64,000 nt of DNA from Elusimicrobiota bacterium (GCA_022072025.1 JAJVIP010000017.1:53462-117461), one strand, 5' to 3'; positions 29,163-56,548 are shown, numbered from the stretch's first letter. Notes: generated from the letters alone by a model not told the origin. Numbers and translations: made by a program.

Positions 29163-31013
29163 TTACGAAGTTGAACCCACGGGTTTCTCAGTGGAAATGG
29201 GGTTCTGAGGCAAATGGACTTGGATGTTGAGGTCTTTTAGTTGGCGTGGCTCCGGTTGACCCGGCGCGCCACTGACCAAGCAGGTACCCTTGGCGGTTTT
29301 CGGGAATGCAATTACGTCTCGGATGGAATCCTCTCCCACCAAAAGGGCCACCAACCGGTCGAGTCCCAACGCAATTCCACCGTGGGGAGGAGCACCGGAT
29401 TCCAGCGCGTCCAGGAGAAATCCAAATTTGTCTTGCATTTCTTCAGCGGAAAGCCCCAACAAAGAAAGAATGATGCGTTGAATGTGCGCGTTGTGGATAC
29501 GAATGCTACCTCCACCCAACTCAGTGCCATTCAAAACCAAATCATAGGCACGCGCGCGAAAGGTTCCCAAAATAGAATGGGGATTTTGAACTTCCGCGCG
29601 TGCATCCAGTTTGGTCAACGCCTCAATATCTTCAGGGCGAGGTGTGGTGAAGGGATGATGCACACTGACCCATCTTTTGTCCTCATCACTCCATTCAAAA
29701 AGTGGAAAATCAGTGACCCACAACATTTCGGTTTTTTCTTTTAAAGAAGGGGGGGTCTGTTTCACCACGTACTTGTGCCATAAATGAAGCCGGAGGGCTC
29801 CCAAAATGGCCTCGGCATTTTTTGTTTTGTCCGAGACCAAGAAAACAATATCTCCTTTCTTGGCTTGGGCAAGAGAGGGAACAGCGGACTTCTCTTCCGC
29901 TGTTAGAAACTTGGCAATCGGTGATTCTATTTCCCCGCTTTCAAGAACTTTCAACCATGCAAGCCCTTGCGCTCCAACGGATTGTGCAAACTTGGTCAAA
30001 TCGTCGATCTCCTTTCTGGAAAAAGCCGCGCCCCCCGCATGAAGCAACCCTTTGACCGAACCGCCTGACTTTAAATTGTTCTTAATGCGCTCGAAACCTG
30101 TGGCGGAGAAAATGGAGGTGAAATCAAAAATTTCAGGGGAAATTCGGAGATCTGGTTTATCAGATCCAAATCTTCGATGGGCCTCAGCGTAAGAAAGTTT
30201 GGGAAGAGGAAGTTTGATATCAATCCCCAACGCTTGTTTGAAACAGAGCGCTATCAGTTTTTCGATGAGGTGCATGATGTCGGCCTCATCCGCGAACGAC
30301 AATTCCAAATCAACCTGGGTAAATTCAGGTTGGCGATCGGCCCTCAAATCTTCATCTCGAAAACAACGTGCGATTTGATAATAGCGATCAAAACCGCTCA
30401 CCATCAACACCTGTTTAAAAAGTTGAGGCGATTGGGGCAAAGCATAGAAAGCGCCGGGAGTGAGGCGAGAAGGAACCAAAAAGTCGCGGGCCCCTTCTGG
30501 AGTGGAGCGCGTCAACATCGGCGTTTCGATTTCAAGAAATCCCTCTTGGTGAAGGAAATTGCGGATGGTGTGGCTCATGGCGTCTCGAAGTAACATGTTT
30601 CTTTGAAGTGTCGGCCGACGCAAATCCAAATAGCGGTATTTCAAGCGAACATCTTCGGAAGATTCATTGTGTTCAGAAATCTCAAAGGGTGGAGTTTTTG
30701 CCTTATTGAACACCACCAGCGATTCTGCCAAGACTTCGACATTGCCGGTGGCCAAATTTGGATTTCGCGTTCCTTCAGGTCGTTGGCGAACCTTTCCTTT
30801 GACTTGAATGACGAACTCGGAACGCAACTGCTCCGCTTCCCCGAACAAAGCCGCCGGTTCCGGATTGAAAACCACTTGAATAAGGCCAGTGCGGTCTCGT
30901 AGGTCAATGAACAACACGCCGCCATGATCTCGACGGGAATGAACCCACCCCGACAAAGTAACAGACTGCCCCAATTCCTTCTCGGAAACAGCCGCACAAT
31001 AGACAGTTCGCAT
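29163..31013 (-). CDS. aspS: Aspartate--tRNA ligase
   Basis: N-terminal [26 protein letters not shown] anticodon-binding motif, followed by class II catalytic motifs. Confidence 0.9.
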
Positions 31014-31552
31014 CATGAGGGTTTCTTTTCCAAAAGAATTCGAATATCCTTGAGACGGTTTCGAAGGTTCCCGACATTTTCAGAGGTGGAGTTGGCCAGC
31101 AATTGATCCAATTCTTTGACAAGCACCTGGGCTGTTTTCTCATGGGATTCGATACGCAGTTGAATTTGTTTCTTCATCTCTTCAAAAGCTTGTATCACCT
31201 CACCCAATTGATCGGATTCGCGAATACGGGTCATATTCGAGAAATCTCCACTCGCCAAACGTTTGATGCCCTTCTCAAGAGAATAAAGCGGCCCCGCGAT
31301 CGTATGAAAGAAAAAATAATTTTCGATGCCGATGCCCGCCAACAACAAAAAAAGTGTAACGCCAAAACCCATCCTTAAACCGCTCCTCAATTGGATCCAA
31401 GAAAATTCATCAAGAATTCCGCTGGCAACAGCGCGGGATACTTGGGTTTCAAACAAAAGGTAGCAAAACACAAAGGCCACCAAGACCACCACCAAGGTCA
31501 ATAGGAGGTGTTTGAGTTGTAACGCCGGTTTAACAAGGAATTTTTTTCTCAT
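31013..31552 (-). CDS. Small 2TM membrane protein with a HAMP-like domain (paralogue 1 of 3)
   Basis: Two TM helices flank a short loop. A HAMP-like [21 protein letters not shown]...[11 protein letters not shown] segment and a coiled-coil tail follow. Confidence 0.45.
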
Positions 31553-33766: not shown

Positions 33767-33795
33767 TTGACTACAAATTTCCTCTCATGTACTCT
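33767..33795 (+). promoter_or_regulatory. Sigma70-like promoter TTGACT-17-TACTCT for the small repeat-protein gene
   Basis: Read directly. A strong Shine-Dalgarno AGGAGGA lies 7 nt before the ATG at 33847. Confidence 0.4.
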
Positions 33796-33846
33796 CACCG
33801 TCGCAACAATGAATCATATCGACGAAAAAATTCAGGAGGACCTAAC

Positions 33847-34068
33847 ATGGCTCAAAAAGTAGCGAAAGCTGGCGTAAAGAGAGAAGATGGGTTTCTATAT
33901 TTCATCGACAAACAAGGCGACATTTCTCGTGCGAAAATGGCGCGCGGCGGAAAGAAAGGCGGCAAGCCCCAGAAAGTAACCAAGCTCGGACTCAAAAAAG
34001 AAAAAGGGTTCCTTTATTTCCTCGATAAGCAAGGCGACGTTTCTCGCGCAAAAATGGTGAGAAGGTAA
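33847..34068 (+). CDS. Small basic protein (73 aa) built from two tandem 30-aa repeats (K-x-E-x-G-F-L-Y-F-x-D-K-Q-G-D-x-S-R-A-K-M)
   Basis: Strong RBS, its own promoter, an internal perfect duplication, and a rho-independent terminator immediately downstream. Confidence 0.5.
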   Translation: MAQKVAKAGVKREDGFLYFIDKQGDISRAKMARGGKKGGKPQKVTKLGLKKEKGFLYFLDKQGDVSRAKMVRR

Positions 34069-34095
34069 GTACTCCTCAAAATTTCGCAATAAAAA

Positions 34096-34128
34096 GCCCC
34101 CGCCAAGAACTTTGGCGGGGGCTTTTTT
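34096..34128. terminator. Bidirectional rho-independent terminator (GCCCCCGCCAA-GAAC-TTGGCGGGGGC flanked by an A-run and a T-run)
   Basis: Perfect 11-bp stem with a 4-nt loop, followed by TTTTTT. Sits between convergent genes. Confidence 0.8.
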
Positions 34129-34149
34129 ATGTCCAGAAATGGGCGCTGA

Positions 34150-34761
34150 TTAAGAAATTTTTATTTGATTGGATTGTGACTTGAGCTCGGCAACGGCCTG
34201 ATCGAGTTTATCGGCTTGGGCAATATTTCCTGAAGATCGTAATTCCTTAGAAATCCCTTCGACTTTATTCAAGGTACCCTCTCGCGCCTCTCGTTCTTTT
34301 TTTATTTTACTTCGGAGCCCCGCCAAACCTTGATTGAATTCATCGGCGAGATCCTGCATTTGATCATGTTTTCTCAAACGAACAAAAATAGACAAATTCC
34401 CTTCCTTCATTTCTTTGAATATCTTTTCAAAACGGTAAATGGGTCCCGCTAAAAAATGAGTCAAAAATAGAACAAGCCCAAATGTGAGTGCCATAATCAA
34501 AAATCCCGTTTGTCCAATAATGGAGGTAAGAGATTGAAGTTGAAGCACAGCATCCTCACCAGTGACAAATCCCGCCTCAATCATTTTATTCACCGCAACA
34601 CGGCTTTCCAGCCAAATAATCAGTGTCGACACCGAAAGGATGGCCAGCAATATAAAACTCAACTTAAATTGAAAGTGATGCTTAATAATATATTGCCCAA
34701 AAAAGCGGTTGACTCTTTTGGGCTGGCTGGATGAACTCACGCTGAGTTGTTCATTTGACAT
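34150..34761 (-). CDS. Small 2TM membrane protein with a HAMP-like domain (paralogue 2 of 3)
   Basis: FGQYIIKHHFQFK...AGPIYRFEKIFKEMKEGNLSIFVRLRKHDQM...KKEREA. Same architecture as the 34975 gene. Confidence 0.45.
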   Translation of the reverse strand: MSNEQLSVSSSSQPKRVNRFFGQYIIKHHFQFKLSFILLAILSVSTLIIWLESRVAVNKMIEAGFVTGEDAVLQLQSLTSIIGQTGFLIMALTFGLVLFLTHFLAGPIYRFEKIFKEMKEGNLSIFVRLRKHDQMQDLADEFNQGLAGLRSKIKKEREAREGTLNKVEGISKELRSSGNIAQADKLDQAVAELKSQSNQIKIS

Positions 34762-34974: not shown

Positions 34975-35580
34975 TTAAATATTGATTTGAGGAAGGTGGT
35001 CTTTGGATTTCCGGAACAATTTATCAAGTTGGTTGGCTTGCTCTGAAAATCCAAGATCTCGCCATTCCTTTACGAGACTGTTTGCTTTTATCCACAAAAC
35101 GTCATTGGCTTCACGTTCTTTTTTTAATTTGTTTCGAATGCTGGAAAGAGCCTGATTCAGGAGATCGGCGCTTTCCTTGAACTCATCATGTCCTCGCAAC
35201 CGAACATGGCCTCCTAAATTCCCATCGCGCATCTGTTCAAATGTCTTCTCAAAGCGAAAGATAGGACCTGCCACAAAATGAGAAAGAAAAAGAGTTAATG
35301 CAAAAATAACCACCGCTGCCAAAAAACCGGTTTTTCCTGTAATGCCCACAAGCAATTCAAGTTGTTCCTTTACGTCTCCTTGGACGGCGTTGGTATCAAT
35401 CAAGCGGCCTACAATCCAGTGACATTCGAGCCAGACAATACCGAGGAAAACCGCCATGACGCCGGACAGAACCAACGCACATTTGAATTGAAACCCATGC
35501 TTGATAATGTATTGCCCAAAAATCCGATGGGTTTTGCTCGGTTGAATAACGTGACTGTGTAATGTTCCTTCTTTTAACAT
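34975..35580 (-). CDS. Small 2TM membrane protein with a HAMP-like domain (paralogue 3 of 3)
   Basis: FGQYIIKHGFQFK...AGPIFRFEKTFEQMRDGNLGGHVRLRGHDEF...KKEREA. Collinear with paralogue 2. Confidence 0.45.
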   Translation of the reverse strand: MLKEGTLHSHVIQPSKTHRIFGQYIIKHGFQFKCALVLSGVMAVFLGIVWLECHWIVGRLIDTNAVQGDVKEQLELLVGITGKTGFLAAVVIFALTLFLSHFVAGPIFRFEKTFEQMRDGNLGGHVRLRGHDEFKESADLLNQALSSIRNKLKKEREANDVLWIKANSLVKEWRDLGFSEQANQLDKLFRKSKDHLPQINI

Positions 35581-35738
35581 TCACACCTCCTTTGAAGTCC
35601 GTTTGAATCTACATCCGATAGCCTATAAATTCCATTGTTTTTGAAGGAACTTTCACCACATCAAATGTGCAAAACGTCACGTCCCAAATATACAAGAATA
35701 TTCTGGAAAGCTATGAAATTCACATATATATTCATTTC

Positions 35739-38297
35739 ATGCGCCAAGTCTCGGAAATTAATCAGTCAACATCTGGAACGACATTAGTCGAACTGATGGT
35801 AGCCGTTGCGATACTTGGCATCGTTAGCATTGGACTCGTGGGTGTATTTGGCAACCTCGGCAAAGCAACACAAACTTCAAAAAACCGAACCCTTGCCGCA
35901 AATCTCGCTCAAGAGAAGATGCAAATCTTAAAAGAGCAAATTTTCGACAAAGTCCTTGTTACCACCTCCACGGCCTATCTGTACGATTTTGACCCTCCCA
36001 TTCCCTATGATACAGGCTATTATCCGCCGGAGCCAATTTTGGAGGGTGGCATACGATTCACGCGCTATACGTTCGTTGAGGTGACAGACGAAAACAGCGG
36101 GGGCTTGGTTTATTTAGGAGCTGTACCCGATTCAGGAATGAAGGCCATTACGGTGACCGCTGTTTGGACCCAGGGAACAGAAATTAAAAAGATCCAAATC
36201 AACAACATTCTTGGGAACATCAATATGAGAATGAACAATGCCATCGTGAGTGGCCAGGTCACCAATTCAGCCACTTCAACTGGGATCCAAGGCGCACTAA
36301 TAACCATGGCAGAAAACGTCGGTTATCAGGATTTCAGCGATGCCAGCGGTAACTATCTCATTAACTTGCTTCCAGGAACCTATACGATGAGCGTGACTGC
36401 AAGTGGCTATTTTCCGTCCTATTTGACGGTTTCCGTTCCCCCTACGTCCCTCACTCAACCTATCTCTTTGGTCGCCATGGGTTCGGGAACAGTACAAGGA
36501 ACAGCCTGGATCAACAACCATTTGGTTATAAGCCAGGTTGTTGGGAGTTCAATCAGTGCAACGGGCTTTAATCAAGAATGGGTGGAGGTTTTCAACCCAA
36601 CGACTTGGACATGGACCGCTTCGGGTGTAGGCCTTAAATTTCAGCGATCAACCGCCCTCGATCTGTCGCCGGTGAATATTTCAATAAATTATGTTTCTCC
36701 TTCCATCGCGCCTGGTGGTTTCTATCTCTTTGCGAACACAACTACGATTACCGCTGCCGGAACCGTACTGAACGCGGACGCCACATGGAATCTGACCGCA
36801 GGAACAAATGACACTGCCTTCAGCCCGCGATTTAACTCATCGGATCCGAACATTATCACGACATACGAAGATACGAATACTTGGGGAAGGGGGAGTGTTC
36901 AACTGTACAACGTTTCCGATGGAACACCTCTTGACACAGTCGGATGGACAGGCGATGGGTCCCAGTCGCCTCCACTTTATGAGGGAAACGCTATAAGTCA
37001 GTTTGAAGGTTTGAACGACAACGAACAATTTTATCGTTACTCTAGTACCAGCGGTTACAACCCGGCTTACGGACCCGCTTATGATTCGGGAGATAACAAT
37101 ACTGACTTGAGTATACTGAGCTCTGTTGGGTGGGTTCCAAAGAACACGGCCAGTGCGACTGTTCCTGTGGTTGCGGGTGTCCCCGCCATCGGTGCGTTTG
37201 TAACGGCGACGGATGGCCTTTCGCAGACGGTGAATGCAAGCTCATTCGGCTCTCCTCCCTGCGCCCAATTTCAGCTGACTTCGGTAGCCACAGGCACCTG
37301 GACTGTGTATATCGCAAGCTCCAGTCTTTATATGGAGATATCGTCAGTTACTGTTTCGCCAAATACAACCACATTGGTACCCAATGCCAACACTTCGCCT
37401 TCATGGCCATCAAGCGGGTACAGCTCAGTTATTTTGTCATCGGTCGCGACTCAGGGATACGTTTCGGGATGGGTGAAAAACGCTTTAGGAGTCGCGATCA
37501 GTCCAGCCATCACCGTCAGCGCGGGTTCTCTCACGGCTCAAGCCAATACTTCGAATGGGACGTATATATTGCCGGTATCCCCAGGTACTTATGACATTAT
37601 GGCGAATGTTCTTAACCCTAATTCTCTTTATGTGTGGCAGGCATCGCAATCCGTTGTGGTTAACCTCGGAGAGGTCACCTCAAATGTTAATTTCAACTTA
37701 ACTCAGGGCGGAAAGGTCAGAGGATTTTGTACGCGCGATGGGACCAATGCTCTACCTGGGATTGTGTTTACGGCCGTTGATGCTGGTGGGGCCACGGTGG
37801 ATCAAGAAGTATCGGGAACCGATGGCATCTATATTTTGCAGAACTTGTCCACCGGCACTTACACCATTTCTCCAAGTTTAGGATCAGGAGAAATCGCGAG
37901 TCCCACCAATACATCTGTGACGGTAATTGCTGGAACCACAGTCAATGCGGCCACATTCACGATTTCCGGCGCGTTCGGCAGCATTGCAGGCAGTGTTACG
38001 GAGTCCGGCCAGGGCATAAAGACGGGCGTTATCATTGTGTGTTCGACAATGACTTTGTCGAGCGGCCCGCCACAGCTCAGCACCAGCACATTAACCTCCG
38101 CCTCCGTTTACGTGACCAACAGTTACGAAGACGGGACCTATATCGTCGACGTTCGTGGAAGCACAACGACGACTTATGTCCTTTACGCTTATTACCCAAA
38201 ATTCAGCGGTTCTGCTCCTGTGATTAGCTCAAGGACCGTGACCAACGTGTCTGTCACGCCGGGTTACCGCACATCAGGAGTTAACTTTGCTTTTTAA
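35739..38297 (+). CDS. Large pilin-like surface protein (about 850 aa): type IV prepilin N-terminus fused to a lamin-tail-like domain and CarbopepD-regulatory-like Ig domains
   Basis: Prepilin cleavage/methylation motif SG|TTLVELMVAVAILGIV with E at +5. LTD-like NQEWVEVFNPT...APGGFYLFAN. Three or more SGQVTN...GxYxxxxxPGTY units. Confidence 0.65.
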   Translation: MRQVSEINQSTSGTTLVELMVAVAILGIVSIGLVGVFGNLGKATQTSKNRTLAANLAQEKMQILKEQIFDKVLVTTSTAYLYDFDPPIPYDTGYYPPEPILEGGIRFTRYTFVEVTDENSGGLVYLGAVPDSGMKAITVTAVWTQGTEIKKIQINNILGNINMRMNNAIVSGQVTNSATSTGIQGALITMAENVGYQDFSDASGNYLINLLPGTYTMSVTASGYFPSYLTVSVPPTSLTQPISLVAMGSGTVQGTAWINNHLVISQVVGSSISATGFNQEWVEVFNPTTWTWTASGVGLKFQRSTALDLSPVNISINYVSPSIAPGGFYLFANTTTITAAGTVLNADATWNLTAGTNDTAFSPRFNSSDPNIITTYEDTNTWGRGSVQLYNVSDGTPLDTVGWTGDGSQSPPLYEGNAISQFEGLNDNEQFYRYSSTSGYNPAYGPAYDSGDNNTDLSILSSVGWVPKNTASATVPVVAGVPAIGAFVTATDGLSQTVNASSFGSPPCAQFQLTSVATGTWTVYIASSSLYMEISSVTVSPNTTTLVPNANTSPSWPSSGYSSVILSSVATQGYVSGWVKNALGVAISPAITVSAGSLTAQANTSNGTYILPVSPGTYDIMANVLNPNSLYVWQASQSVVVNLGEVTSNVNFNLTQGGKVRGFCTRDGTNALPGIVFTAVDAGGATVDQEVSGTDGIYILQNLSTGTYTISPSLGSGEIASPTNTSVTVIAGTTVNAATFTISGAFGSIAGSVTESGQGIKTGVIIVCSTMTLSSGPPQLSTSTLTSASVYVTNSYEDGTYIVDVRGSTTTTYVLYAYYPKFSGSAPVISSRTVTNVSVTPGYRTSGVNFAF

Positions 38298-38790
38298 ATC
38301 CAACAAAGGACAAAAGGGCACAACTCTTATCGAATTGATGATTGTCGTATCGATATTGGGAGTTATCGTCATGCTAGCCCCCAATTTATACAAGCAGGTC
38401 CGGCGTTTCTTTTTTTTGAATAGCGCGAAAGTTGAACTTCAGCGGGAAGCGCGTTCTGTGATGGAGCTGGTTACACGGCGATTGCGGCAAGCGAGTTCGA
38501 CAACGTTGGTGATGGATCAAGCAAGCGGTCAACCCTATTATTCAAGGATTAGGTTTACCGACATCGACTCAAATACGAACGTTTATTATCAGAGTGGGAA
38601 GAATCTCGTAATGAGCGTCAATGGTTCGACAAGAACCCTAACATCCAATTTGCGATATCTCGCTTTTGCATTGCCACGCTCGGATGATATGAACATTGTT
38701 TCAGTGGCTTTGACACTTGAAAAATCAACATACGAAGGCCAAACCAAAGCGCTCCATATGGCCTCGGAAAAGGTTAGGTTAATCAATTAA
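38287..38790 (+). CDS. Prepilin-type minor pilin/pseudopilin
   Basis: KG|TTLIELMIVVSILGVIV N-terminal methylation motif. 167 aa. Overlaps the upstream gene by 11 nt. Confidence 0.65.
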   Translation: MLFKSNKGQKGTTLIELMIVVSILGVIVMLAPNLYKQVRRFFFLNSAKVELQREARSVMELVTRRLRQASSTTLVMDQASGQPYYSRIRFTDIDSNTNVYYQSGKNLVMSVNGSTRTLTSNLRYLAFALPRSDDMNIVSVALTLEKSTYEGQTKALHMASEKVRLIN

Positions 38791-40196
38791 TGAAAAACAA
38801 ATCGAAAGGATTCGCGTTACCAGCCGTCTTGGCGATCATGCTCGTGTGCATGGTTTTATTGCCAGCTCTTGTTATGTGGATGCAACAGGACATGAAGATG
38901 GCAGTGAAAACCCAGAAGACCAGTCTTGCTTTTAATCTGGCAGAAGCAGCGGTTGATCGGGGCATGTGGAAACTAAAAAGCTCGAGCTCGACATTTGCGC
39001 AGGCAGCCGCTGGAACGGTTATTACCGGTTATAACTTTGACACAACCTATGTTGATGTCGCGGGCGGCACTTACCGGATTAAATTTTCGTCCGGCCCGGC
39101 CGCGCGGCAAGTCACTATTTGGGGTGAGGGACGTGACGCGGCAAACAATGCGACTCGTTCGGTCCAAATGGTGGTTCAAAATCAGACTATTTACAGTGCT
39201 TTGATGGCGGGAGGAAACACCACATGGGCCAAAGGACTTATTATTTTTTGGGGGCCGATTATCTCGCAAGGCAACATCGCAATCCAAGATGATATTGTTG
39301 GAGGAATCTACTACCCTCAAAAGTACGCAAAAGGCACGGTGATCGGAACTGCTACCAATCCAAGAGATACAAATGGACCGACCCCACCGAACACAGACAA
39401 CACAGAGTGGTGGTCTCAATATGAGGGTGTGCCCGATGTTCCTGTATTGGATTTCGCCTCATTACGGTCCTCAGCGGCGGCAACAGGCACGTTAAACGTT
39501 TATGGATGCCGATCTACCCAAGGAGGGGCTGGCACCAACAACAGCGCGACTGCGTGGGACACTCGCGCATCATGTACCGCCTCCGGAGCGCATGCCACCC
39601 ATTTTGGCAATCCATGGTGCCATCCGAAATCAGCCCGAAATCAACCCAACAACAGCTATGTATGGTATTGGGACGGAGACGTCACTTTAAGTGGTGGAAG
39701 CAGCGCCAATCAAAGTTGCGGACTCCGTGGCATGGTGATAGTCCGAGGGAATTTAACCATCAACACCCCTGGCGAATATAAGTACACGGGCCCGGTTCCG
39801 ACAAACGCATGGCAACAACACAAGAAATTCACAAAGACTACTTATGATACATCGTCATCAAGTCAATACCCTGCTGATACTGGTCTTAACTCCTCCGCGT
39901 CCACTTTTTCTTTTGGCACGACTGGGTTCGGCGTTCCAGGATTGGGAACTGGTCCTTACCAATGTACGGTTGGTATCAGGGGTTTTACGTATGTAGGCGG
40001 AAACTTAAGCATCCTCAATTATATGGACTTCAATGGAGCCGTGTGGGTCAATGGAACGGTTTCGTCCAGTGGCGGCACCTTATCAACTTCTTGTGGAATA
40101 TTTTACGATGAAACATTAGATGTCCCGGCCCTGAACGTAATTCTCGTCCGTTCGTCGTGGAATGAAGTCACTCCGAGCTCTTCCCCATGGTTATAA
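38790..40196 (+). CDS. PilX-like minor pilin (N-terminal PilX domain) with a large variable C-terminal region
   Basis: The KGFALPAVLAIMLVCMVLL hydrophobic N-terminus resembles PilX_N. Start overlaps the upstream stop. Confidence 0.5.
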   Translation: MKNKSKGFALPAVLAIMLVCMVLLPALVMWMQQDMKMAVKTQKTSLAFNLAEAAVDRGMWKLKSSSSTFAQAAAGTVITGYNFDTTYVDVAGGTYRIKFSSGPAARQVTIWGEGRDAANNATRSVQMVVQNQTIYSALMAGGNTTWAKGLIIFWGPIISQGNIAIQDDIVGGIYYPQKYAKGTVIGTATNPRDTNGPTPPNTDNTEWWSQYEGVPDVPVLDFASLRSSAAATGTLNVYGCRSTQGGAGTNNSATAWDTRASCTASGAHATHFGNPWCHPKSARNQPNNSYVWYWDGDVTLSGGSSANQSCGLRGMVIVRGNLTINTPGEYKYTGPVPTNAWQQHKKFTKTTYDTSSSSQYPADTGLNSSASTFSFGTTGFGVPGLGTGPYQCTVGIRGFTYVGGNLSILNYMDFNGAVWVNGTVSSSGGTLSTSCGIFYDETLDVPALNVILVRSSWNEVTPSSSPWL

Positions 40197-41580: not shown

Positions 41581-41895
41581 CCGTTAGCCACCAGTAGTCG
41601 TGTCCGATTCCGCTGCATCACTACTGTCCGGATGTTGGCATGAAAGGATTCCTTTATGTCGGTCAAGATATGGAAAATGCAGGGGGAGGAGCCACGCTGA
41701 TCGGGGCTCTGTTCCTAGTTGGCGAGATGAAAGTGAACACTTTTACAATCTATTATGACAGTGATGTTGCGGCCTCTATCGAGACCGCTGGAACAGGACA
41801 AGTTTATCGATCTTCCTGGGACGAAGTTCTTACCACCTGGTAAACCCTCTCTCCCTATAAAAAAAATTCAAGAATTGATTTGCTACGATTCCATC

Positions 41896-45046: not shown

Positions 45047-45433
45047 ATGAAAAAACGGCACAAAATTCTCATTGTGGATGATGAAGAAAACATCGCCTCT
45101 TCTATGAGTGATCTTCTGGAAATGAAGGGATACGAAGTCAAAAGCGCCAACAATGGCGTCGAGGGGCTCAAAATTTTGGCAGATGAACCCATCGACTTGG
45201 TTCTTTTGGATCTCAAAATGCCCCGCATGGACGGTTATATGTTCATGGAACATTTAAAGGAACGCTGGGAAAATGGAGACAAACGATTTCCGCTTCCCCA
45301 AATTATTGTGATGACGGCCGTAGACAAAAAAAATGATCTGGGTTTGGCCAATAATCTCGGGGCCGTTGAATATTTAAATAAACCTTATAAATCTGACGAT
45401 TTGTTGTCCCTTCTTAAAAAACTACTGAAATAA
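45047..45433 (+). CDS. Single-domain response regulator (CheY-like)
   Basis: ILIVDDEENIA...LVLLDLKMPRMDG receiver motifs. Confidence 0.8.
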   Translation: MKKRHKILIVDDEENIASSMSDLLEMKGYEVKSANNGVEGLKILADEPIDLVLLDLKMPRMDGYMFMEHLKERWENGDKRFPLPQIIVMTAVDKKNDLGLANNLGAVEYLNKPYKSDDLLSLLKKLLK

Positions 45434-45504
45434 TCCTCCTCTCGCCTTCATAAGATCACTTGGCTGTCATCGGTTTGTCGATGATTCCCTGCTATTTTGA
45501 CCCC

Positions 45505-45996
45505 ATGGAAAGACGAAAATACAAACGGTTCTCCGCGACAGCATTTTTAAACCGGCCGGTCACGCTAACTCCCGTTCCGCCTTTTTTTGGGAAACCCATC
45601 AAGGGTAAGTTGATCGATTTGTCTGCTGGAGGACTCTCCATGCTGATTCATCAAATTATTCCTCAGGGGACGCACTTGCAATTGACCCTCGTATTTCCAG
45701 ATCAAACCCGCTTAGAATGCGAAACTCAAGTGAAGCACATGCTTCCCCGGGACCGGAATTATCTACACGGATTTGAATTCCTCAACATCGATCCATCATG
45801 GGTTACGCGAATCAATGATATGTCCTCCCACTTCATTGACTGTGAGCGCCGTATTCAATCGGCTGACATCAATCCCTGCATTGGAAGCCAATGCGCTTTT
45901 TTTAACATGTGCAACAAACAAGAACGAGTCAACCTCCTTGTCAACATCGATGACGAATTGCTGCTGAACTTGGCTGTTTTAGAATTTCACCGTTAA
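45505..45996 (+). CDS. PilZ-domain protein (putative c-di-GMP receptor)
   Basis: RRKYKRF...DLSAGGLS matches the PilZ RxxxR / D-x-S-x-x-G pattern. Confidence 0.55.
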   Translation: MERRKYKRFSATAFLNRPVTLTPVPPFFGKPIKGKLIDLSAGGLSMLIHQIIPQGTHLQLTLVFPDQTRLECETQVKHMLPRDRNYLHGFEFLNIDPSWVTRINDMSSHFIDCERRIQSADINPCIGSQCAFFNMCNKQERVNLLVNIDDELLLNLAVLEFHR

Positions 45997-47342: not shown

Positions 47343-47463
47343 TCAACTGGATTGTTTTCCTCTAGGATTCAGATAAAGTACTTGCGCTGAATCTCAAGTC
47401 CACTTAAGTTTGAGACGTATGCACCTCCGTCACAAACCTAACCCGCCGTTCTTGGGAAAAGTG

Positions 47464-49143
47464 ATGGCCAGTTTGGCTGTTATGACCATTTCTTTTTCTC
47501 TTCTCTCCCCATCTCAAGCCGCCCCGGTTAAAAAAAACAAAACATCTGATGCCGCTAAAGTGTCCGAGAAAACAGAAGCAGGTGAGACAAAAGTTCCGGG
47601 GAAAATTGAATCCGTTACCCGCAAAGTCGAGGTCTTTAGAGCAGGATCAAACGGATGGAAAAAAGCCCAAAGCAGCACACCTCTTTCTCCGGCCGACAAA
47701 ATAAAAACCGGCACCCGATCTGTGGCCCGAGTCAAATTGGCTGATGGGACAAAAATTTTACTGCTCCAAAATTCCCAAGCGGAAGTGGAGAAACTTTCCA
47801 GCGTTCAAAAAAGCATCAAACTCCTCAAAGGACGTATTCGCGCCATCGTTTCAAAGATGAAAGGCGGTAACAATTTCCAGATAAACACCCCCGTGGGCGT
47901 GGCCAGTGTTCGCGGGACTGATTTCGAAGTAAGCGTCGAAGGAGATGAAAAATCACCTCAAATGCAGGTCTCGGTGAATGAAGGGCAAGTGGGGGTTTCT
48001 AAATTGGGGGATATGTCCCAGGAAGTGGTGTTGAACGCAGGGGAAAGCATTAAATTTGGGTTTGAAGGAGATATGGGAACCCCCATCCGATCAGGTTCTC
48101 TCCCTGGGGACCGAGACACGGTGAGAACGGAGATTCAAATCGCCAAATCCAAAGAGGCGATGCTGGCCATGGCCGCCGAAGAATCCCGCCAAGCGGATTA
48201 CCAAACCGGAAAATCATTGATGGATGTGGACGGACAACGGGTTCGAGTTGAGGAATACATTATGCGTCCCCGCGCCGATCAATTTAAATTGGTGGTTCTC
48301 AATGAGCGCCCTGAACGATTTGACTACTTCACTTACAAAGGAACCTTCAACACCGACCTCCCTGAAGATCTCTCCATTGCGCTTGGACAAGTGGCTGGAA
48401 AAGTGGGAGCCACCGCTCCTGATTATTATTTGAGGGAATATGAAACCGTCGCCTCCAACACAGTGGATACCGTTTCCGATTCCGCTTCGGGCGGACATTT
48501 GGTGAAGATAGATTTCGATGGAACCAATTACACCCTGACCGATAACGAAGATGCCACCAACACGCGGGTCGTTGAAGCGGCCGCCTTACAGCCTGACGGT
48601 TCGTATAAAATTTACAACCCCATTCGCGATTCATTTTCTCTTGTTTCCGCCGCCAATAAAACAGAGGCCTTAAAAGTTGGGGTGGTCGATGGCGGAAACT
48701 ATCGCAATCTCACGGGGGGCGACACCTACTGGAAAACCCGGTTTAACACGTACGCAATGTTCGTGAACAGCACGGGAAAAACCGCCTATGAAAAGAAAGG
48801 CAGTGTCACCAACACGCTCGCCGTCGATTTGGACGCGAACTTCTCCAATGCCCCCATCACCTCCATAACGGAATTTCCCGATGGAACCAGTCAACTCCAC
48901 AATAAATTGAGCCTCTTCTACGCGGACGGATCAAAATTGGTCTATGACAATTACATCATCGATGACGAAGGGAATATGGTTCCTGCGTCCACTTTCAACG
49001 GGATATCAACAAGCGCTGAATATAAAAACATTTTGGACACTTTAAACTACCAACAAAACATCACTGCCACCGAAATGGGATCTCGGTCCATTCGATTGGT
49101 CATCGATCCGCGAATTGGAACCAAATCGGGGTTGATCCAATAA
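47464..49143 (+). CDS. Secreted FecR-domain protein
   Basis: Signal peptide MASLAVMTISFSLLSPSQA. FecR-like block ADGTKILLL...GVASVRGTDFEVSV. Confidence 0.5.
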   Translation: MASLAVMTISFSLLSPSQAAPVKKNKTSDAAKVSEKTEAGETKVPGKIESVTRKVEVFRAGSNGWKKAQSSTPLSPADKIKTGTRSVARVKLADGTKILLLQNSQAEVEKLSSVQKSIKLLKGRIRAIVSKMKGGNNFQINTPVGVASVRGTDFEVSVEGDEKSPQMQVSVNEGQVGVSKLGDMSQEVVLNAGESIKFGFEGDMGTPIRSGSLPGDRDTVRTEIQIAKSKEAMLAMAAEESRQADYQTGKSLMDVDGQRVRVEEYIMRPRADQFKLVVLNERPERFDYFTYKGTFNTDLPEDLSIALGQVAGKVGATAPDYYLREYETVASNTVDTVSDSASGGHLVKIDFDGTNYTLTDNEDATNTRVVEAAALQPDGSYKIYNPIRDSFSLVSAANKTEALKVGVVDGGNYRNLTGGDTYWKTRFNTYAMFVNSTGKTAYEKKGSVTNTLAVDLDANFSNAPITSITEFPDGTSQLHNKLSLFYADGSKLVYDNYIIDDEGNMVPASTFNGISTSAEYKNILDTLNYQQNITATEMGSRSIRLVIDPRIGTKSGLIQ

Positions 49144-49161
49144 TTTGACAGAGGGGTCTTC

Positions 49162-50376
49162 ATGAAATCTCGTGTTCTCTTGTTTATCTTAGCTTCAATG
49201 CTGAGCCATATATCCATGGCTGGCCCTCAATACATTCCAGTCATCAACGGTCTTTTCACAACGGGACAATGGTATTTTGAAGGCGATAAAAGTGAGTTGG
49301 GTGGAAATGCCGCGATCACGTTCGTTCCTGCCCTCAAGTACTCCGATAAATTCACACTGATTCCTACTGTACAAAGCTATTACCATGGCACACGCACCGC
49401 GGAAGAGTTGGCGGGGGGAAATACTTTATTTCAAGATACCTGGGACAATGGCATCGGAGTCAAAGCTGTCCATTCATTGAATGAAAAATGGAACATCAAG
49501 GAAAATATAGGCGCTCGTTTTAAATGGTTCCGTGAGACCACCGATGAACGATGGACCCATGGACTCTATGATTACCGAATTCTTAATGCGGGCTTGGAAG
49601 CGGAACGAAAGTGGGGGAAAAAAACCAGCATCGCGGCGGGGTATGATATTTCTCTTCTCCAATTTCCCAACTATGTTTCCTTGGAGTCCAGTCAAAGCGA
49701 GGATCGTTCCAGAGAATATGCGGGTGAAAATGTTCTCGATACCCGCAGCCATCTTTTTTCCCTTCGGATCAAGGCCCCGCTTTTTTGGGGACTCTCCACC
49801 TCACTGAACTCATTTTTAACCCCTCGATATTACACCGATCAACATGTGGTTCAATTAACAGGTCTTTTGTCAGCCACAACACGAGATGACCTTTTTTCCA
49901 GCAACACCCTCTCGATCGATCGGGTATTTACCCTCTTTCGAAAAACGAAACTCATCTCGACCGTTATCGTTGGACACAACAGCCTCGATTCCAATCAAAA
50001 CCATTATGACGCCAAGCAAACTTACTTCGCGGCCAACTATTACGACTACGATCAAAATATCGCTGGTCTCCAAATGAACTACGCCTTTGGCAGCAAAATG
50101 CAAAGTCCCATGCTGATCAACTTGGGATACAACTATTCTCATCGCAACTACCGTTCTAGAACCATCCAAGACGCGGATGGAGCCTATTTGAATGAAAAAC
50201 TCTATTTGATCGAACAAGCCATTAATCTTGGTTTTAGTTATCCGCTTGCAAAAAATTTCAGAGTCAAAATGTCCACCACTTTTGCCCAAAGCAAATCCAA
50301 CAACAATTTTGAATCACTCTATCGATACAACTATCACAACTCGGAATATCAATTTGGATTCACTTATGATTATTAA
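49162..50376 (+). CDS. Outer-membrane beta-barrel protein of unknown function
   Basis: Signal peptide. Tyr/Gly-rich alternating strands. C-terminal aromatic ...FGFTYDY. Good RBS GAGGGG. Confidence 0.45.
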   Translation: MKSRVLLFILASMLSHISMAGPQYIPVINGLFTTGQWYFEGDKSELGGNAAITFVPALKYSDKFTLIPTVQSYYHGTRTAEELAGGNTLFQDTWDNGIGVKAVHSLNEKWNIKENIGARFKWFRETTDERWTHGLYDYRILNAGLEAERKWGKKTSIAAGYDISLLQFPNYVSLESSQSEDRSREYAGENVLDTRSHLFSLRIKAPLFWGLSTSLNSFLTPRYYTDQHVVQLTGLLSATTRDDLFSSNTLSIDRVFTLFRKTKLISTVIVGHNSLDSNQNHYDAKQTYFAANYYDYDQNIAGLQMNYAFGSKMQSPMLINLGYNYSHRNYRSRTIQDADGAYLNEKLYLIEQAINLGFSYPLAKNFRVKMSTTFAQSKSNNNFESLYRYNYHNSEYQFGFTYDY

Positions 50377-53300
50377 TAAACGGAGTTTAACCGGTTTAAT
50401 TTTAAATTTATCCCTACTCGCTGTGATGGCTCATGCAACTCCCTCTGACATTGCCGATTTAACAGCCACGACGGGTTCAAACCCCGGCACAGTGACTCTC
50501 AATTGGTCCGCCCCCAACGGCGGAGCCACTCGGTACATCATCAAATACGCTCCAAGTTCCTCTTTAATTTCAACGGAGTCCCAATTTTTATCCGCCTCTC
50601 ACATTGAGGCGCCCCCCATTAATGCACAAGCGCCAACGCCAGCCAGTGGGGGTTCACCCGAAACGCTGACGATATCAGGATTACAGAACGGGGTCGTGTA
50701 TTCATTCTCTATTAAATCGGAGGACAGCAGTTTGATTCGCTCCAATCTCTCCAATGGGGCCACCGCCATGGCCGCTGTTCCTTGCGCTGCGAACGCCAAT
50801 GACGGAAAAGGAAGCGGCGCCATTCTTCCAGCTTCTATCCCCAAAGGACAAGTCGTTCTAACCACCGTCACTTTCACGGTGGACCCGGCCGGAATCGGGA
50901 CCGGAGGAAAAATCTCTCTCCAAGTCCCAGATTTTTTCCCTTTTTTGAGCACCGCCACTTCGAACCAAGAATCCTCTGGATATATTTCTTACACCCACAC
51001 GGGAGGAGCCAACTTGGTTGTTTCCTCTCTCAGTGAACAAGTCATCACATTAAAAGTCGACTCGGGAAGTATGAGCAGCGGTGACCTTGTGAAATTCTTC
51101 ATCTATGCTCACATCTGTTATACCGGGAACAATTCATCCCTTCAATTTCGATTGGCCTCTCAACAAGGAAGTTGCGGAATCCTCAGAGAAATTGCCAGTC
51201 AACCCGTTGTCTCAATTACAAATGGGGGCCCCGCCTTTATTGCGTTTGACCCTTATGAGATTGTGGCGAAGGTCGATGCCATCACCTCTTTCAAAGTCGT
51301 TTCTTTTGATGGATGTGGATATCCAGTCAACTTGTCTCAAACAACAGCCTTTACATTGGAAACCTATCGATATGATTCGAATTCCTCCAATTATATTGTG
51401 GATAGTAACGCATCTCTTTCACTCTCTTCAGATATGTCCTCTTCAAACACCAACATTGGATCTGACATAACCAGCGGGCAATCGGAGAGAACCGCTTACT
51501 ATCGGATCACAACGGCCTCGGCCAAACCCAACTATATTGTATTGACCTACGATGATTTAACTCCACCTCACAACTCCATCTCCTATATCGCTTCAATTGT
51601 TCCACTCACTGTTGGAATTGCGTCAAGTTCAGTCGATAAAGGAACTCTCAATCAAACTCAAAAAACAGTCACCTTTGATCCAGGTAAAAATGAACGTGTT
51701 TATTTCAACTTTTCACTTCCCGAAAATCTTTCCTGGAAAATCATGATATCGAGCAATGGTTTTTCCTCTTTCACCTATATTATTTATGGGAATGGAAAAA
51801 ATGTTCGCACCTCCTGGGATGGGTATGCGGATCCGTCCCCGGGGGAACCTCCGCAAATTGCTCCAGCAGGAACCTATTCCATACGGATACAAATTGGGCC
51901 GGACATAAAAGATGAAACCTGTTCCGTGACTCTCCAATCAGCCGGCATTCAAGGGACGTTGGTAAAAGCGGGGACAGCAACCGCATTGGAAAACGTCGAT
52001 ATCGAATTTTTTGGACCCACGCCCCGCTACACCCGCTCTCGGACGAATGGAACCTTTGAAACGGGAGGGCTCAACTCAGGATCTTATAAGGTTCGGTTCT
52101 TTAAACCTGGTTATATTTTCAAGGAGGTTAATGCGACCGTAACTTCCGGCAACTCAACCAATTTGGGAACCGTTGAACTGACCGAAGCGGCTATTTTAAG
52201 GCTTTATTTCAGCCGTTCAGCTTCTGGCAGTCTGCCGGATATCAATGGATCAGTGCGTGCCTACAACTCTGATTATTCCAAACAATCCTTTGGGTCCGTT
52301 CGGTTTAGATCGGGAAGCACCACTTCAGATGCCGGCGATGATTGGAACTCGACTCCCACTCCTTATACCGACTTATATCTCGAACAAAATGTGGCCTATT
52401 CAGTCCAGGTTGAAATTCCCGGGTTTGCTCCCCTTACCTTCAGTAACACATTAACCTCCGCGGGTGTTACCACCAGCACTCCAACGTTGACGACAAAACC
52501 CACAATAGAGGGGACCGTAACCATTCCAGCGGGGGGGAATGCCCAAGGTCTTTGGATCTCTGTTGAAGCCGCAATTGATGCAAACGGAGATTTAAGTCCG
52601 GACTCTACGGATCCCTCCAACCGTTTATACGGTGGCAGCTATCTTCCACCCAATGAAACCACGGGAATTTACCGTGTTTTCGGATCGACCAATGCCAAAT
52701 ATGTGCTAACGGCATTTGCGCCGGGCTTCGTCCAGAGAAAAATCAATGTCACCGTCAATGGAAGCGATGTCAACAATGCCAATTTCCCCATTTTCAGCGA
52801 GGGGGGAAATATCTCAGGAACAATCACAGTGAATGGAGACTCCACCATTCTTGATGGCGATGACAACGATGGAAAATTTGAAATCCCCATCAATGCCTAC
52901 TCACCTTCAACCGGACGAGGTAGTTTCGCACAGATTGAGCTAAATGAAAATGCGTCCTCCACCAGCGGCGCATACCAATTAAAAGGACTGGAGGATGGAA
53001 TTTATAACGTCTCGGTTTACCAGTCGGGGTTTGGGTTGGTCCCCCCTGGACCCAAAAGCGTAACGGTATCCGGAGGAACCGGGACACTCAATCTCACTTT
53101 GGAACGCTTCAGCGGACAATTCACTGGGACCCTGACCTTGCCGACAGGCCAATCCAATTATGGCACTGTCGAAGTCGATGCCCTGTCGTTTAATCACTTT
53201 GGACAAGGAAGTCTGACTGGCGTCATTTCAGGGAACACCTATACCATCAGCAATCTCGGAACAGATTTTTACACCATTCGCGCTCGCTACCCCACGACAG

Positions 53301-56300: not shown

Positions 56301-56548
56301 TCGATGGAACCATGATCAAACTGAGCGTTCCCACCACCATTTCCGGGACGGCTGAAATCAGCATTTTCGATGTCACCGGCGCCCTGGTAAGAACAATAAG
56401 ACACAACGTCACCGGCGGTTCTCATTATTATCTGGAATGGGATGGACTCAACGAGCGAGGGCAAAAGGTCGCCTCCGGCACGTACATTGCGCGCTTAACT
56501 GTTGGTGGCGGGAACGAAAAATTCTTTAAGATGGCGGTGCTCAAGTGA
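50366..56548 (+). CDS. Giant cell-surface protein (about 2060 aa): Fn3, multiple CarbopepD-regulatory-like/Ig-like domains, and a C-terminal T9SS type-A-like sorting domain (Por_Secre_tail-like)
   Basis: Signal peptide LAVMAHA|T. Fn3-like TVTLNWSAPNGGATRYIIKYA. Repeated GxV.D..G.PL....V.. units. C-terminal NFPNPFN...ISIFDVTGALVRTI...WDGLNERGQKVASGTYIARL...KMAVLK. Confidence 0.7.
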   Translation: MIINKRSLTGLILNLSLLAVMAHATPSDIADLTATTGSNPGTVTLNWSAPNGGATRYIIKYAPSSSLISTESQFLSASHIEAPPINAQAPTPASGGSPETLTISGLQNGVVYSFSIKSEDSSLIRSNLSNGATAMAAVPCAANANDGKGSGAILPASIPKGQVVLTTVTFTVDPAGIGTGGKISLQVPDFFPFLSTATSNQESSGYISYTHTGGANLVVSSLSEQVITLKVDSGSMSSGDLVKFFIYAHICYTGNNSSLQFRLASQQGSCGILREIASQPVVSITNGGPAFIAFDPYEIVAKVDAITSFKVVSFDGCGYPVNLSQTTAFTLETYRYDSNSSNYIVDSNASLSLSSDMSSSNTNIGSDITSGQSERTAYYRITTASAKPNYIVLTYDDLTPPHNSISYIASIVPLTVGIASSSVDKGTLNQTQKTVTFDPGKNERVYFNFSLPENLSWKIMISSNGFSSFTYIIYGNGKNVRTSWDGYADPSPGEPPQIAPAGTYSIRIQIGPDIKDETCSVTLQSAGIQGTLVKAGTATALENVDIEFFGPTPRYTRSRTNGTFETGGLNSGSYKVRFFKPGYIFKEVNATVTSGNSTNLGTVELTEAAILRLYFSRSASGSLPDINGSVRAYNSDYSKQSFGSVRFRSGSTTSDAGDDWNSTPTPYTDLYLEQNVAYSVQVEIPGFAPLTFSNTLTSAGVTTSTPTLTTKPTIEGTVTIPAGGNAQGLWISVEAAIDANGDLSPDSTDPSNRLYGGSYLPPNETTGIYRVFGSTNAKYVLTAFAPGFVQRKINVTVNGSDVNNANFPIFSEGGNISGTITVNGDSTILDGDDNDGKFEIPINAYSPSTGRGSFAQIELNENASSTSGAYQLKGLEDGIYNVSVYQSGFGLVPPGPKSVTVSGGTGTLNLTLERFSGQFTGTLTLPTGQSNYGTVEVDALSFNHFGQGSLTGVISGNTYTISNLGTDFYTIRARYPTTGLVVTTQGQVKNGSTTTKNLDLSGATYSVSGRVTSSASAPYTLSFIVNRSTPTQAYTPSGPSTLNANRITAQRLRNRDFNDGGGGPSGGIFYDPKESFIGFYNANGDYSINGLAEGSYRLTTNGEMDGDLSNGNEISKLNKVLYVGQNMTGQNFNLTDGYKISGTIRVASGQSESGRSLNVQARDSEGSTVAQQFIYLSGTSAEFSLTHIPPGQYVVTVSDTYPRKYSSKDLQVEIISSDISNKEISLLNSGIIRGKLQVKKSGIVISAANYSQYLSESFRIEARSNPYIPGGFGRAENPIIDANGYFNIAVNPGTYDVVLGLDGGISDSDIAQGKKAFVNVTKSAISVSGGEIKDLGVIPLDEGIEMTGTVVDASGTPLSNIRVEAEKSNQSGHNDELLETFTDSNGKYVMRGIDSTGARYYHFFAAPRPDPFDQRFSGDTTASRYAESIKGPIDTQSVTEVNFTLSLANSGITATITTADSGVPQVPFGESGSLPGAIAILNKQPEIPVDNPLGNIEEFVSPSGTLDVKGLAAGVYDLYILAKGYGSYSKKNISVSEGETVDLGTIVLPTGYTLSGKLTKPNGDPVTTSDVEDIIAARNNFNEIAIAQLDQDASNNIIKYSISGIQPNKAYSIIGFGRSNSVSNLASDITLTSDTELDLTFEAPAPGVLNQIVKNNDGSFTLLFKFEETLRNSDIDISGTIGIKDDNEILSLTSGNSALGETTISSDRKEVSTTYTPAGGETSFTLRVTATFVSQDSETGANQTIDTTFTFYAGVSKQNSATVSNASGGEVDLSQANDSTSFTAPAGWQGEDEDSAPQVTLKAAATQSELETSASMVGSKLGALRVAEKLGLHAYPSEMAKAMSKLKKLDVSPLSSFYDIFLPAGVSHFFPEGKEARLCLSYDSSATDPYSLNVYYYNSTTDEYLLESENKSVDTVNEKICVSISHASIFTVLNSSVSIITGDGYSGELSIINFPNPFNLKSKTVTLQNPGSASASQVIDGTMIKLSVPTTISGTAEISIFDVTGALVRTIRHNVTGGSHYYLEWDGLNERGQKVASGTYIARLTVGGGNEKFFKMAVLK

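Follow-up and report, generated by a model that had tools for sequence, protein, structure and literature searches.

Three overlapping genes of an Elusimicrobiota bacterium encode pilin-like proteins and lie apart from all genes for pilus assembly. What would such an isolated set of pilins do? Which targets a type IV pilus binds, and whether the pilus forms at all, depends on minor-pilin tip complexes. To our knowledge, nearly everything about these complexes comes from Proteobacteria, Thermus and Firmicutes. Elusimicrobia are mostly uncultured and live in groundwater, sediment and gut. Literature searches for their pilins found general statements only, and the present cassette is not known to have been studied. 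We analyzed the cassette within a window of 64,000 nt, which is the whole stretch of DNA studied (GCA_022072025.1 JAJVIP010000017.1:53462-117461).

Layout and conservation of the cassette

The cassette consists of three genes on the + strand, A, B and C. According to the ORF calls, gene A lies at 35739-38297 (852 aa, ATG start), gene B at 38287-38790 (167 aa, TTG start) and gene C at 38790-40196 (468 aa, ATG start). An alternative GTG start at 35667 would lengthen A to 876 aa. The last 11 nt of A also belong to B, and B and C share a single base (TAATG). Therefore, the three genes are almost certainly co-transcribed and translationally coupled. Promoter and terminator scans at the cassette gave counts no higher than the shuffle expectation. 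One candidate promoter, TGGAAA-17-TATATT, lies so close to A (its end is 7 nt upstream of the ATG) that the mRNA of A would be leaderless; the site was not significant and was rejected. A search of Rfam showed neither a riboswitch nor a leader in the vicinity of the operon.

We surveyed the 64 kb in all six frames with a prepilin pattern (G-x-[TS]-x-x-E followed by a hydrophobic run), and it matched A and B only. A looser pattern without Glu5 added C alone. Thus, the three overlapping prepilin-type genes of the original prediction were recovered, and no other such N-terminus exists in the window. That prediction had also stated that no assembly ATPase, platform or peptidase gene lies nearby, and this can be extended. 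Neither pilB, pilC, pilD, pilM, pilN, pilO, pilQ or gsp genes nor any gene for a pilus ATPase, platform, secretin or prepilin peptidase was found anywhere in the 64 kb, and no assembly gene stands beside the cassette in about 75 related loci.

The order A-B-C is kept in about 70 of the 75 loci from GTDB Elusimicrobiota genomes, with varying housekeeping flanks. Some genomes have a second, divergent copy of the cassette. Each family has more than 100 members, and the class III signals are conserved within them. Neither a T2SSE Walker A motif nor additional prepilin genes were found in the ±10 kb flanks of about 75 loci. Among the flank genes of the 75 loci, clustering revealed no conserved neighbor that is informative on function; the clusters were limited to metG, tmk, holB and one GT2-like and one subtilisin-like protein. 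We searched for the machinery of the source organism within the 64-kb window, and its presence in the phylum is taken from the literature: Elusimicrobiota genomes were reported to encode PilABCDQM(T) (bioRxiv 10.1101/2022.07.08.499144), and pilD is retained in Endomicrobium genomes.

Gene A encodes a large modular pilin

The N-terminus of A reads MRQVSEINQSTSG|TTLVELM. A leader peptide of 13 aa (35739..35777, + strand) ends at Gly-1 of a predicted prepilin-peptidase site, G|TTLVE, where we infer cleavage from the family alignment. Among 63 relatives of A, Glu+5 is invariant and Gly-1 is nearly so (at least 90% conserved); position +1 is T, L, V, I, F, M or A. The score of A against Pfam N_methyl (PF07963) was exactly at the threshold (21.2 bits, cut-off 21.2) and that against TIGR02532 was slightly under it (15.4, cut-off 16.3).

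The AlphaFold model of A (pLDDT 87.3) comprises a GspI-like pilin module and then six beta-sandwich domains, together about 700 residues, in agreement with the predicted fusion of a pilin to beta-sandwich modules. In the pilin module (35778..36224, + strand), the expected alpha1 helix was found as a long helix at residues 16-66, packed on an antiparallel sheet at residues 78-159. It is followed on the same strand by a CarboxypepD_reg (transthyretin-like) domain (36225..36479, residues 163-247), a divergent lamin-tail-like domain that is enlarged by insertions and an extension (36480..37172, residues 248-478) and four more beta-sandwich domains (37173..38294, residues 479-852). The first of these four is Ig/X-module-like (residues 479-550) and the third is SpaA/prealbumin-like (656-744); the other two are beta-sandwiches at residues 551-655 and 745-852. 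CarboxypepD_reg (PF13620), which had been claimed for A, matched in three stretches with 57.3 bits (cut-off 32.3), and both the gathering score and the transthyretin-like fold were found. SpaA also exceeded its Pfam cut-off (26.0 bits, cut-off 23.1).

The lamin-tail-like domain is divergent. LTD (PF00932) scored 20.7 bits in the whole protein and 23.3 bits in the isolated domain, under the cut-off of 34.3, and the original claim of a lamin-tail domain thus failed, in this protein, at the HMM threshold it had named as its own refutation. However, 20 of 24 members of the A family matched LTD at E <= 0.01 (best 6.1e-8), and no other family recurred in this segment among the 24 relatives. The match in A spans profile positions 6-108 of 109, and the segment was modelled as all-beta with a pLDDT of about 90. 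The lamin-tail identity is therefore sub-threshold in this protein and comes from the family-level evidence. Sequence searches of the PDB with profiles of the A family and of the LTD segment found no lamin or LTD structure. Their sole match to the segment, a kelch repeat, was rejected because its similarity to the NPTT motif is due to chance.

Among solved pilin folds, those of GspI, XcpV and EpsI were nearest to A, whose globular module had a GspI-like fold. Matches of A to I-type HMMs were all under the curated cut-offs and confined to alpha1 (TIGR01707 gspI, 21.4 against 44.35; TIGR02523 PilV, 22.2 against 52.2), and the hhalign match to E. coli GspI (probability 94.6) covered alpha1 only. 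The length of A is far beyond the I-type family range. With N_methyl, PF13620, SpaA and LTD-like domains, A is a modular type IV pilin in the sense of Raynaud et al. 2021. Its exposed modules are all acidic (pI 4.1-4.9, Lys+Arg 1-5%), and the LTD core of the A family has a median net charge of -8. Conservation along A is even, with no variable distal domain, which is unusual for an adhesin meeting diverse ligands. There are more than 120 full-length Elusimicrobia homologs, and the usual database name is 'carboxypeptidase regulatory-like domain-containing protein'.

Gene B encodes a small pilin with Glu5

The N-terminus of B is KGQKG|TTLIELM, and an AGGAG sits 6 nt upstream of its TTG start. 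Gene callers place the start 17 codons too late, which removes the pilin signal from the annotated protein. From the TTG start, B exceeded the cut-offs of both PF07963 (27.7 bits, cut-off 21.2) and TIGR02532 (22.3, cut-off 16.3). Glu+5 is invariant across 50 relatives, with Gly-1 conserved in at least 90%, and the family profile matched solved type IV pilins at their N-termini (E 2e-7).

B resembles a J-type pilin by gene position only. In hhalign comparisons with GspG-K of E. coli, which covered the N-terminal region only, the probabilities were 95.1 for GspG, 91.7 for GspH and 77.0 for GspJ, and the NCBIfam gspJ model (TIGR01711) gave 14.5 bits against a cut-off of 64.85. As the profiles favored GspG and GspH over GspJ, the J-type (GspJ/PilW) label and with it a clean I-J-K labelling of B were dropped. 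The best NCBIfam match of B was TIGR02599, at 35.6 bits against 256.5, with residues 12-71 aligned to positions 2-61 of 361. Some relatives of B carry the corresponding Verru_Chthon naming at JGI. We rejected the identification of B as Verru_Chthon cassette protein C, as the low-scoring match covers alpha1 only and B has 167 aa against 361 positions.

Gene C encodes a pilin with a beta-solenoid

The N-terminus of C, MKNKSKG|FALPAVLAIML, has Gly-1 and lacks Glu5. Its model shows a pilin module at residues 1-135 (predicted helix 9-63, strands 93-131) and a beta-solenoid at about 136-440, so that C is a second modular pilin, one that the original prediction had missed. A C-terminal strand, predicted at 452-460, is among the best conserved segments. 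The model resembles Thermus ComZ and GspK, and the closest solved T2SS folds are GspK and XcpX. The absence of Glu5 and a pilin fold with a large extra domain, which mark the K type, are both present in C.

Sequence comparisons gave no such likeness. Pfam had no match to C at E <= 1, including N_methyl, PilX_N and T2SSK. The sole NCBIfam match was the N-terminus of HpsA (E 0.013), hhalign of C with GspK gave a probability below 10, and no sequence-level similarity to GspK or PilX was found. Thus, the proposed N_methyl check was passed by A and B and not by C, and the supposed PilX-like N-terminus of C was recovered by no HMM, although it finds a counterpart in the fold. Structurally, as far as the model goes, C is a K-type (GspK/ComZ-like) modular pilin. 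Its solenoid is neutral to acidic. The family has about 700 sequence clusters and no Pfam entry.

Downstream of the cassette, the HMM of the C family, run on 1273 six-frame pieces, detected a 67-aa ORF (41640..41843, + strand; E 6.5e-6). Collinear with the final 65 residues of C, this ORF is the C-terminal remnant of another C-type gene in tandem. The related locus L004 has two intact tandem C genes at the equivalent place, before tmk.

A probable tip and priming complex

The conserved class III signals, the GspK/ComZ-like C and the separation from assembly genes are in keeping with the predicted stand-alone minor-pilin operon. By analogy with GspI-J-K, PilV-W-X and PilA2-ComZ, we think it rather probable that A, B and C form a minor-pilin complex that would cap, and probably prime, an Elusimicrobia type IV pilus. 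The three proteins would be inserted in the inner membrane via their alpha1 helices and processed by a prepilin peptidase whose gene lies elsewhere. C, needing no Glu5, would take the apex, with A and B docked below it in a staggered helix bundle. This bundle would template polymerization of the major pilin by a PilB/PilC-type motor, also encoded elsewhere, and ride outward on the pilus tip. The tip would then display the six-domain chain of A and the beta-solenoid of C as a built-in adhesin, which would replace a separate PilY1/PilC protein. The first product is probably a tip adhesin, as originally suggested, and that core reading held up in every test that was run.

Our best guess for the ligand of these modules is a glycan or a particle surface, because the CarboxypepD_reg fold is carbohydrate-binding-like, the solenoid of C is tapirin-/ice-binding-like and the exposed modules contain few Lys and Arg residues and are acidic. 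A bolder version is possible but doubtful. The cassette might be the core priming complex of the Elusimicrobiota pilus, with a phylum-wide, PilY1/PilC-free tip whose adhesin is built into the pilins, and its conserved acidic LTD and solenoid head might recognize one conserved ligand (a glycan or mineral surface, less likely DNA, as in ComZ).

Alternative explanations

Archaeal sugar-binding proteins with class III signals are a comparison for pilus-free surface display. The prepilin N-termini of the cassette might likewise serve as peptidase-dependent anchor or export signals, with the proteins forming a short stub or fibril that never polymerizes with a major pilin. We consider this unlikely. 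The invariant Glu+5 of A and B and the apex-type N-terminus of C are the pattern expected of filament-packed subunits, the strongest conservation along A is in alpha1C, a sign of helix-helix packing, and subunits of initiation complexes have folds like those of A and C (GspI-like and GspK/ComZ-like). These observations have to be set against the lack of linkage to assembly genes or a major pilin in about 75 loci, the very large size of A for a pilin, the even conservation of its domains, like that of a structural surface protein, and the unusual abundance of pilin-like genes that the literature reports for the phylum.

The trio might also be the equivalent of GspI/J/K at the head of a periplasmic T2SS piston, considering the nearest solved folds of A and C and that some sources label relatives 'type II secretion system protein' or PulG. 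However, the GspI/J/K and PilV/W/X folds are common to T2SS and type IV pili, so the fold does not discriminate. The long chain of A and the solenoid of C (about 300 residues) are ill-suited to a short periplasmic pseudopilus, and gspC, D, E, F, L and M are adjacent in no locus, whereas a T2SS normally has its minor pseudopilin genes inside the gsp operon, E. coli K-12 being an example. We regard this reading as very unlikely; of the two options originally offered, the periplasmic pseudopilus is less likely than the pilus tip. That C is a ComZ-like DNA receptor of a competence pilus, perhaps aided by the lamin-tail domain of A, is also very unlikely, because the exposed modules are acidic or, in the solenoid of C, neutral to acidic, which disfavors DNA as ligand, ExeM can degrade DNA without its LTD, and none of the adjacent genes is a com gene.

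If the cassette is a minor-pilin tip complex, it would be a compact version found across the phylum, with large, confidently modelled candidate binding modules on two of its three subunits. It would offer a handle on surface attachment in Elusimicrobia and a natural test of whether I/K-type pilins can replace PilY1-type adhesins. The Pfam-less C family gains a fold and a likely role from the present analysis, and two systematic annotation problems are flagged: the late start of B and the naming of A after its carboxypeptidase regulatory-like domain only.

Comparison with known pilus systems

Like GspI-GspJ-GspK and PilV-PilW-PilX (PDB 3CI0, 5VTM; model PMC12918778), the cassette consists of adjacent, co-expressed minor pilin genes, with one GspI-like subunit and one Glu5-less K-type subunit that has an inserted extra domain and a conserved C-terminal strand. 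A C-terminal beta-strand completing the pilin sheet is required in K-type pilins and CpaL (PMC12918778), and the predicted, strongly conserved strand of C would fit this requirement. The differences are also clear. The I-type subunit has 852 aa here and about 120-185 aa in the GspI/PilV systems, the K-type insert is a beta-solenoid instead of the alpha-domain of GspK, H-type and PilY1 genes are absent from the set, the cassette stands apart from all assembly genes, and every curated HMM cut-off for these sets was missed. The middle gene is not demonstrably J-type, unlike GspJ/PilW, so a strict I-J-K assignment is incomplete. C also has a fold like that of Thermus thermophilus ComZ (PDB 6QVI), which with PilA2 is a tip protein of the competence pilus.

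CpaL/TadG of Tad pili and CofB/TcpB of type IVb pili are likewise large minor-pilin-like proteins with a tip or initiation role, an N-terminal pilin domain and a bulky middle or C-terminal module. However, they belong to other pilus classes and are encoded inside their own pilus operons, and no sequence or specific fold match to them was found in the cassette. The Verru_Chthon cassette (TIGR02596/02598/02599/02600) is also a multi-gene prepilin-type set with a very large member.

The modular pilins, such as PilB and PilC of S. sanguinis (PMC8179133), similarly graft functional domains onto an N-terminal pilin module. Among the architectures catalogued in the InterPro survey of Raynaud et al. 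2021, IPR012902-PF13620 is the third commonest, with 66 proteins, and pilin plus LTD (IPR012902-IPR001322) has six (PMC8179133, Dataset S1); both were only counted and are not known to have been characterized. Compared with these, A bears six extra domains, C is a second modular pilin in the same operon, and the whole A-B-C cassette is conserved across a phylum.

Gene organization and prepilin-type N-termini

The cassette at 35739-40196 on the plus strand comprises three overlapping ORFs that encode pilin-like proteins, here called A, B and C. Gene A (35739-38297, +) has an ATG start and encodes 852 aa. Gene B (38287-38790, +) encodes 167 aa from a TTG start with an AGGAG 6 nt upstream, and gene C (38790-40196, +) encodes 468 aa. 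The overlap is 11 nt between A and B; between B and C it is a single base within TAATG. Therefore, a single A-B-C transcript with coupled translation would be the natural reading. Gene callers place the start of A at a GTG at 35667 (876 aa; difference 35667-35739). In public annotation B begins only at 38338 (150 aa; difference 38287-38338), by which its prepilin signal and pilin N-terminus are lost. Many database relatives show this kind of truncation, which conceals that the families are pilins.

A strict prepilin pattern, Gly-x-[TS]-x-x-Glu and then hydrophobic residues, was run against the whole window in six-frame translation and had exactly two matches, the N-termini of A (SG/TTLVELM; the slash marks the predicted cleavage site) and B (KG/TTLIELM). 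When the pattern was loosened to drop Glu5, the sole extra match in the six frames was C (KG/FALPAVLAIML). The clustering of the three predicted prepilin N-termini is not a chance effect, and the ORFs and the pattern search agree with the original prediction of three overlapping genes of this type. Members of the A family nearly always have Gly-1 and without exception Glu+5, and they differ at position +1 (T/L/V/I/F/M/A). The B family shares this pattern, with T/Y/V/W/F/L at +1. The C family starts with [KR]-G-[F/Q]-x-L, and Glu5 is present in no member. Prepilin peptidases require Gly-1 and tolerate many residues at +1, so Thr at this position, though unusual, should be acceptable for the predicted cleavage.

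Domains and structural models

The Pfam N_methyl model matched A at 21.2 bits, exactly its cut-off of 21.2, and B at 27.7 bits; it did not match C. The N-terminus of C had been described as PilX-like, but no Pfam or NCBIfam HMM recognises the PilX type there. For A, the best N-terminal matches in NCBIfam were ComGE, PilV and GspI, all under cut-off. When the pilin module of A was compared by hhalign with the pseudopilins of E. coli K-12, GspI ranked first, with a probability of 94.6 and only alpha1 aligned. These results make A an I-type (GspI/PilV) minor pilin that carries some 700 additional residues.

The model of A (mean pLDDT 87.3) comprises, in order, a 51-residue alpha1 helix (residues 16-66), a pilin beta-sheet (78-159) and six beta-sandwich domains at about 163-247, 248-478, 479-550, 551-655, 656-744 and 745-852. 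The predicted CarboxypepD_reg-like units were recovered in three stretches with 57.3 bits (cut-off 32.3), and SpaA/prealbumin scored 26.0 bits (cut-off 23.1). The predicted lamin-tail domain (LTD, PF00932) fell below the cut-off of 34.3 in the window protein (20.7 bits in the whole protein and 23.3 in the isolated segment), and so for this sequence the assignment fails the HMM threshold that the original prediction had set for it. The equivalent segment matched PF00932 at E <= 0.01 in 20 of 24 relatives (best 6.1e-8). The match runs from position 6 to 108 of the 109 in the model, and PF00932 is the only family to recur among these segments. Conservation is even along A, with alpha1C as the most conserved segment, which points to a conserved partner and a conserved ligand.

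The profile of the B family aligns with solved type IV pilins at their N-termini (E 2e-7), and in hhalign comparisons it preferred GspG and GspH over GspJ. The model of C (pLDDT 86.3) has an alpha1 helix (9-63), a three-stranded sheet (93-131), a long beta-solenoid and a last strand (452-460). According to a recent proposal, K-type pilins (GspK/PilX/ComZ) and CpaL license assembly only if they have a terminal beta-strand (PMC12918778). The C-terminal segment is among the best-conserved parts of the C family, which fits this proposal.

Distribution across the phylum

A hypothetical protein from an Elusimicrobia MAG matches A with 100% identity. For each of A, B and C there are over 100 full-length relatives; those with a named organism all come from Elusimicrobia or Elusimicrobiota. 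In a full HMM search, 712 of 1.84 billion cluster representatives were relatives of C at E <= 0.001. Among ten weaker members, the only named one was also from Elusimicrobiota. By this count, the C family is small and probably restricted to this phylum.

With one genome taken per GTDB species, a profile-guided scan gave 75 loci, all from Elusimicrobiota, Endomicrobiia or unnamed MAGs. In HMM mapping, the gene order was A-B-C wherever the contig was long enough. Carriers of the cassette with complete or nearly complete genomes include OY969767.1 (2.72 Mb), CBDIQC010000001.1 (3.1 Mb) and E. minutum Pei191. Several Elusimicrobiota genomes have a second, divergent cassette, A'-B'-C' (about 884, 165 and 421 aa), which keeps the architecture and signals of the first, is often convergent with it, and encodes proteins 28-43% identical to those of the window. 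Second cassettes are present at loci L004 (1646-5690), L012 (11471-15881), L015, L018, L030, L042, L057 and L060; in L004, three integrase genes lie between the two copies. Just upstream of tmk in the window, a 67-aa ORF (41640-41843, +) matches the C-family HMM (E 6.5e-6) along the final 65 residues of that family. At the equivalent position, L004 carries two intact C genes of 464 aa. This ORF looks like a remnant of a second, tandem C-type gene.

Genomic neighbourhood

In the window, the cassette is flanked by panC, panB, folK, genes for two small membrane proteins and a GAF-PAS protein, tmk, holB and metG. The commonest neighbours across loci are metG, tmk and holB. Within ±10 kb of the cassette loci we found neither a T2SSE-type Walker A motif nor a further prepilin N-terminus. 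Therefore, the stand-alone placement that had been predicted for this operon is a general property of the family. Endomicrobium genomes keep pilD, and a preprint reported PilABCDQM(T) homologs across the phylum, with numerous pilins (bioRxiv 10.1101/2022.07.08.499144). It is thus plausible that the pilus machinery is encoded elsewhere in the source genome.

Divergent from A are genes for two paralogous proteins of about 200 aa (34150-34761 and 34975-35580, both on the minus strand), each with one membrane segment and the common N-terminal motif FGQYIIKH-FQFK. They had no Pfam match, and the pair is not conserved beside the cassette elsewhere. A HAMP protein at 31013-31552 is of similar size. 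A basic 93-aa ORF (33787-34068, +) carries two copies of a repeat of about 35 residues (K-EDGFLYFIDKQGDISRAKMAR / KKEKGFLYFLDKQGDVSRAKMVR). The stretch between two convergent genes at 34011-34190 is hairpin-rich on both strands and had sub-threshold Rfam matches to His, Thr and Leu attenuator leaders (best 33 bits vs 49); most simply, it is a bidirectional terminator.

Genes for a stand-alone response-regulator receiver and a PilZ-domain protein (45047-45996, +) follow metG, 5 kb downstream of the cassette, and through them c-di-GMP signalling may be connected with the function of the pilus. Farther downstream (47410-57459, +) are genes for a FecR-domain protein (47410-49143), a 404-aa protein and a 2106-aa protein (50228-56548) with fn3 and CarboxypepD_reg domains and a FlgD_ig/Por_Secre_tail-like C-terminus, followed by a PorV/UPF0164-like outer-membrane protein (56545-57459). 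This region may encode a giant surface protein together with a sorting system dedicated to it.

Discussion

These results support a phylum-wide, previously uncharacterised minor-pilin tip complex with modular pilins, detached from its machinery. The original observation is confirmed, with the LTD caveat, and its reading as a minor-pilin operon with a modular pilin as possible tip adhesin is supported. A count in InterPro lists 66 modular-pilin proteins with PF13620 and 6 with an LTD, and neither kind has ever been studied (PMC8179133).

Other readings were weighed. It seems unlikely that the proteins are displayed on the surface without polymerisation. A T2SS pseudopilus tip is less probable still, considering the bulk of A and C and the lack of gsp neighbours. 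The exposed modules of A are all acidic, with pI 4.1-4.9, and contain very little Lys and Arg. Across the family, the net charge of the LTD core has a median of -8, and the C solenoid is neutral to acidic. All of this argues against DNA as the ligand and disfavours a DNA receptor of a competence pilus, the least probable of these readings.

A tip or initiation complex analogous to GspI-J-K or PilV-W-X is the most economical reading. In such a complex, C would occupy the apex above A and B, and the growing pilus would carry the complex outward, displaying the beads-on-a-string stalk of A and the solenoid of C. Our best guess for the ligand would be a glycan or particle surface, because of the CarboxypepD_reg fold and the tapirin-like, ice-binding-like solenoid. 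C resembles ComZ; nonetheless, the charge of the exposed A and C modules disfavours DNA binding.
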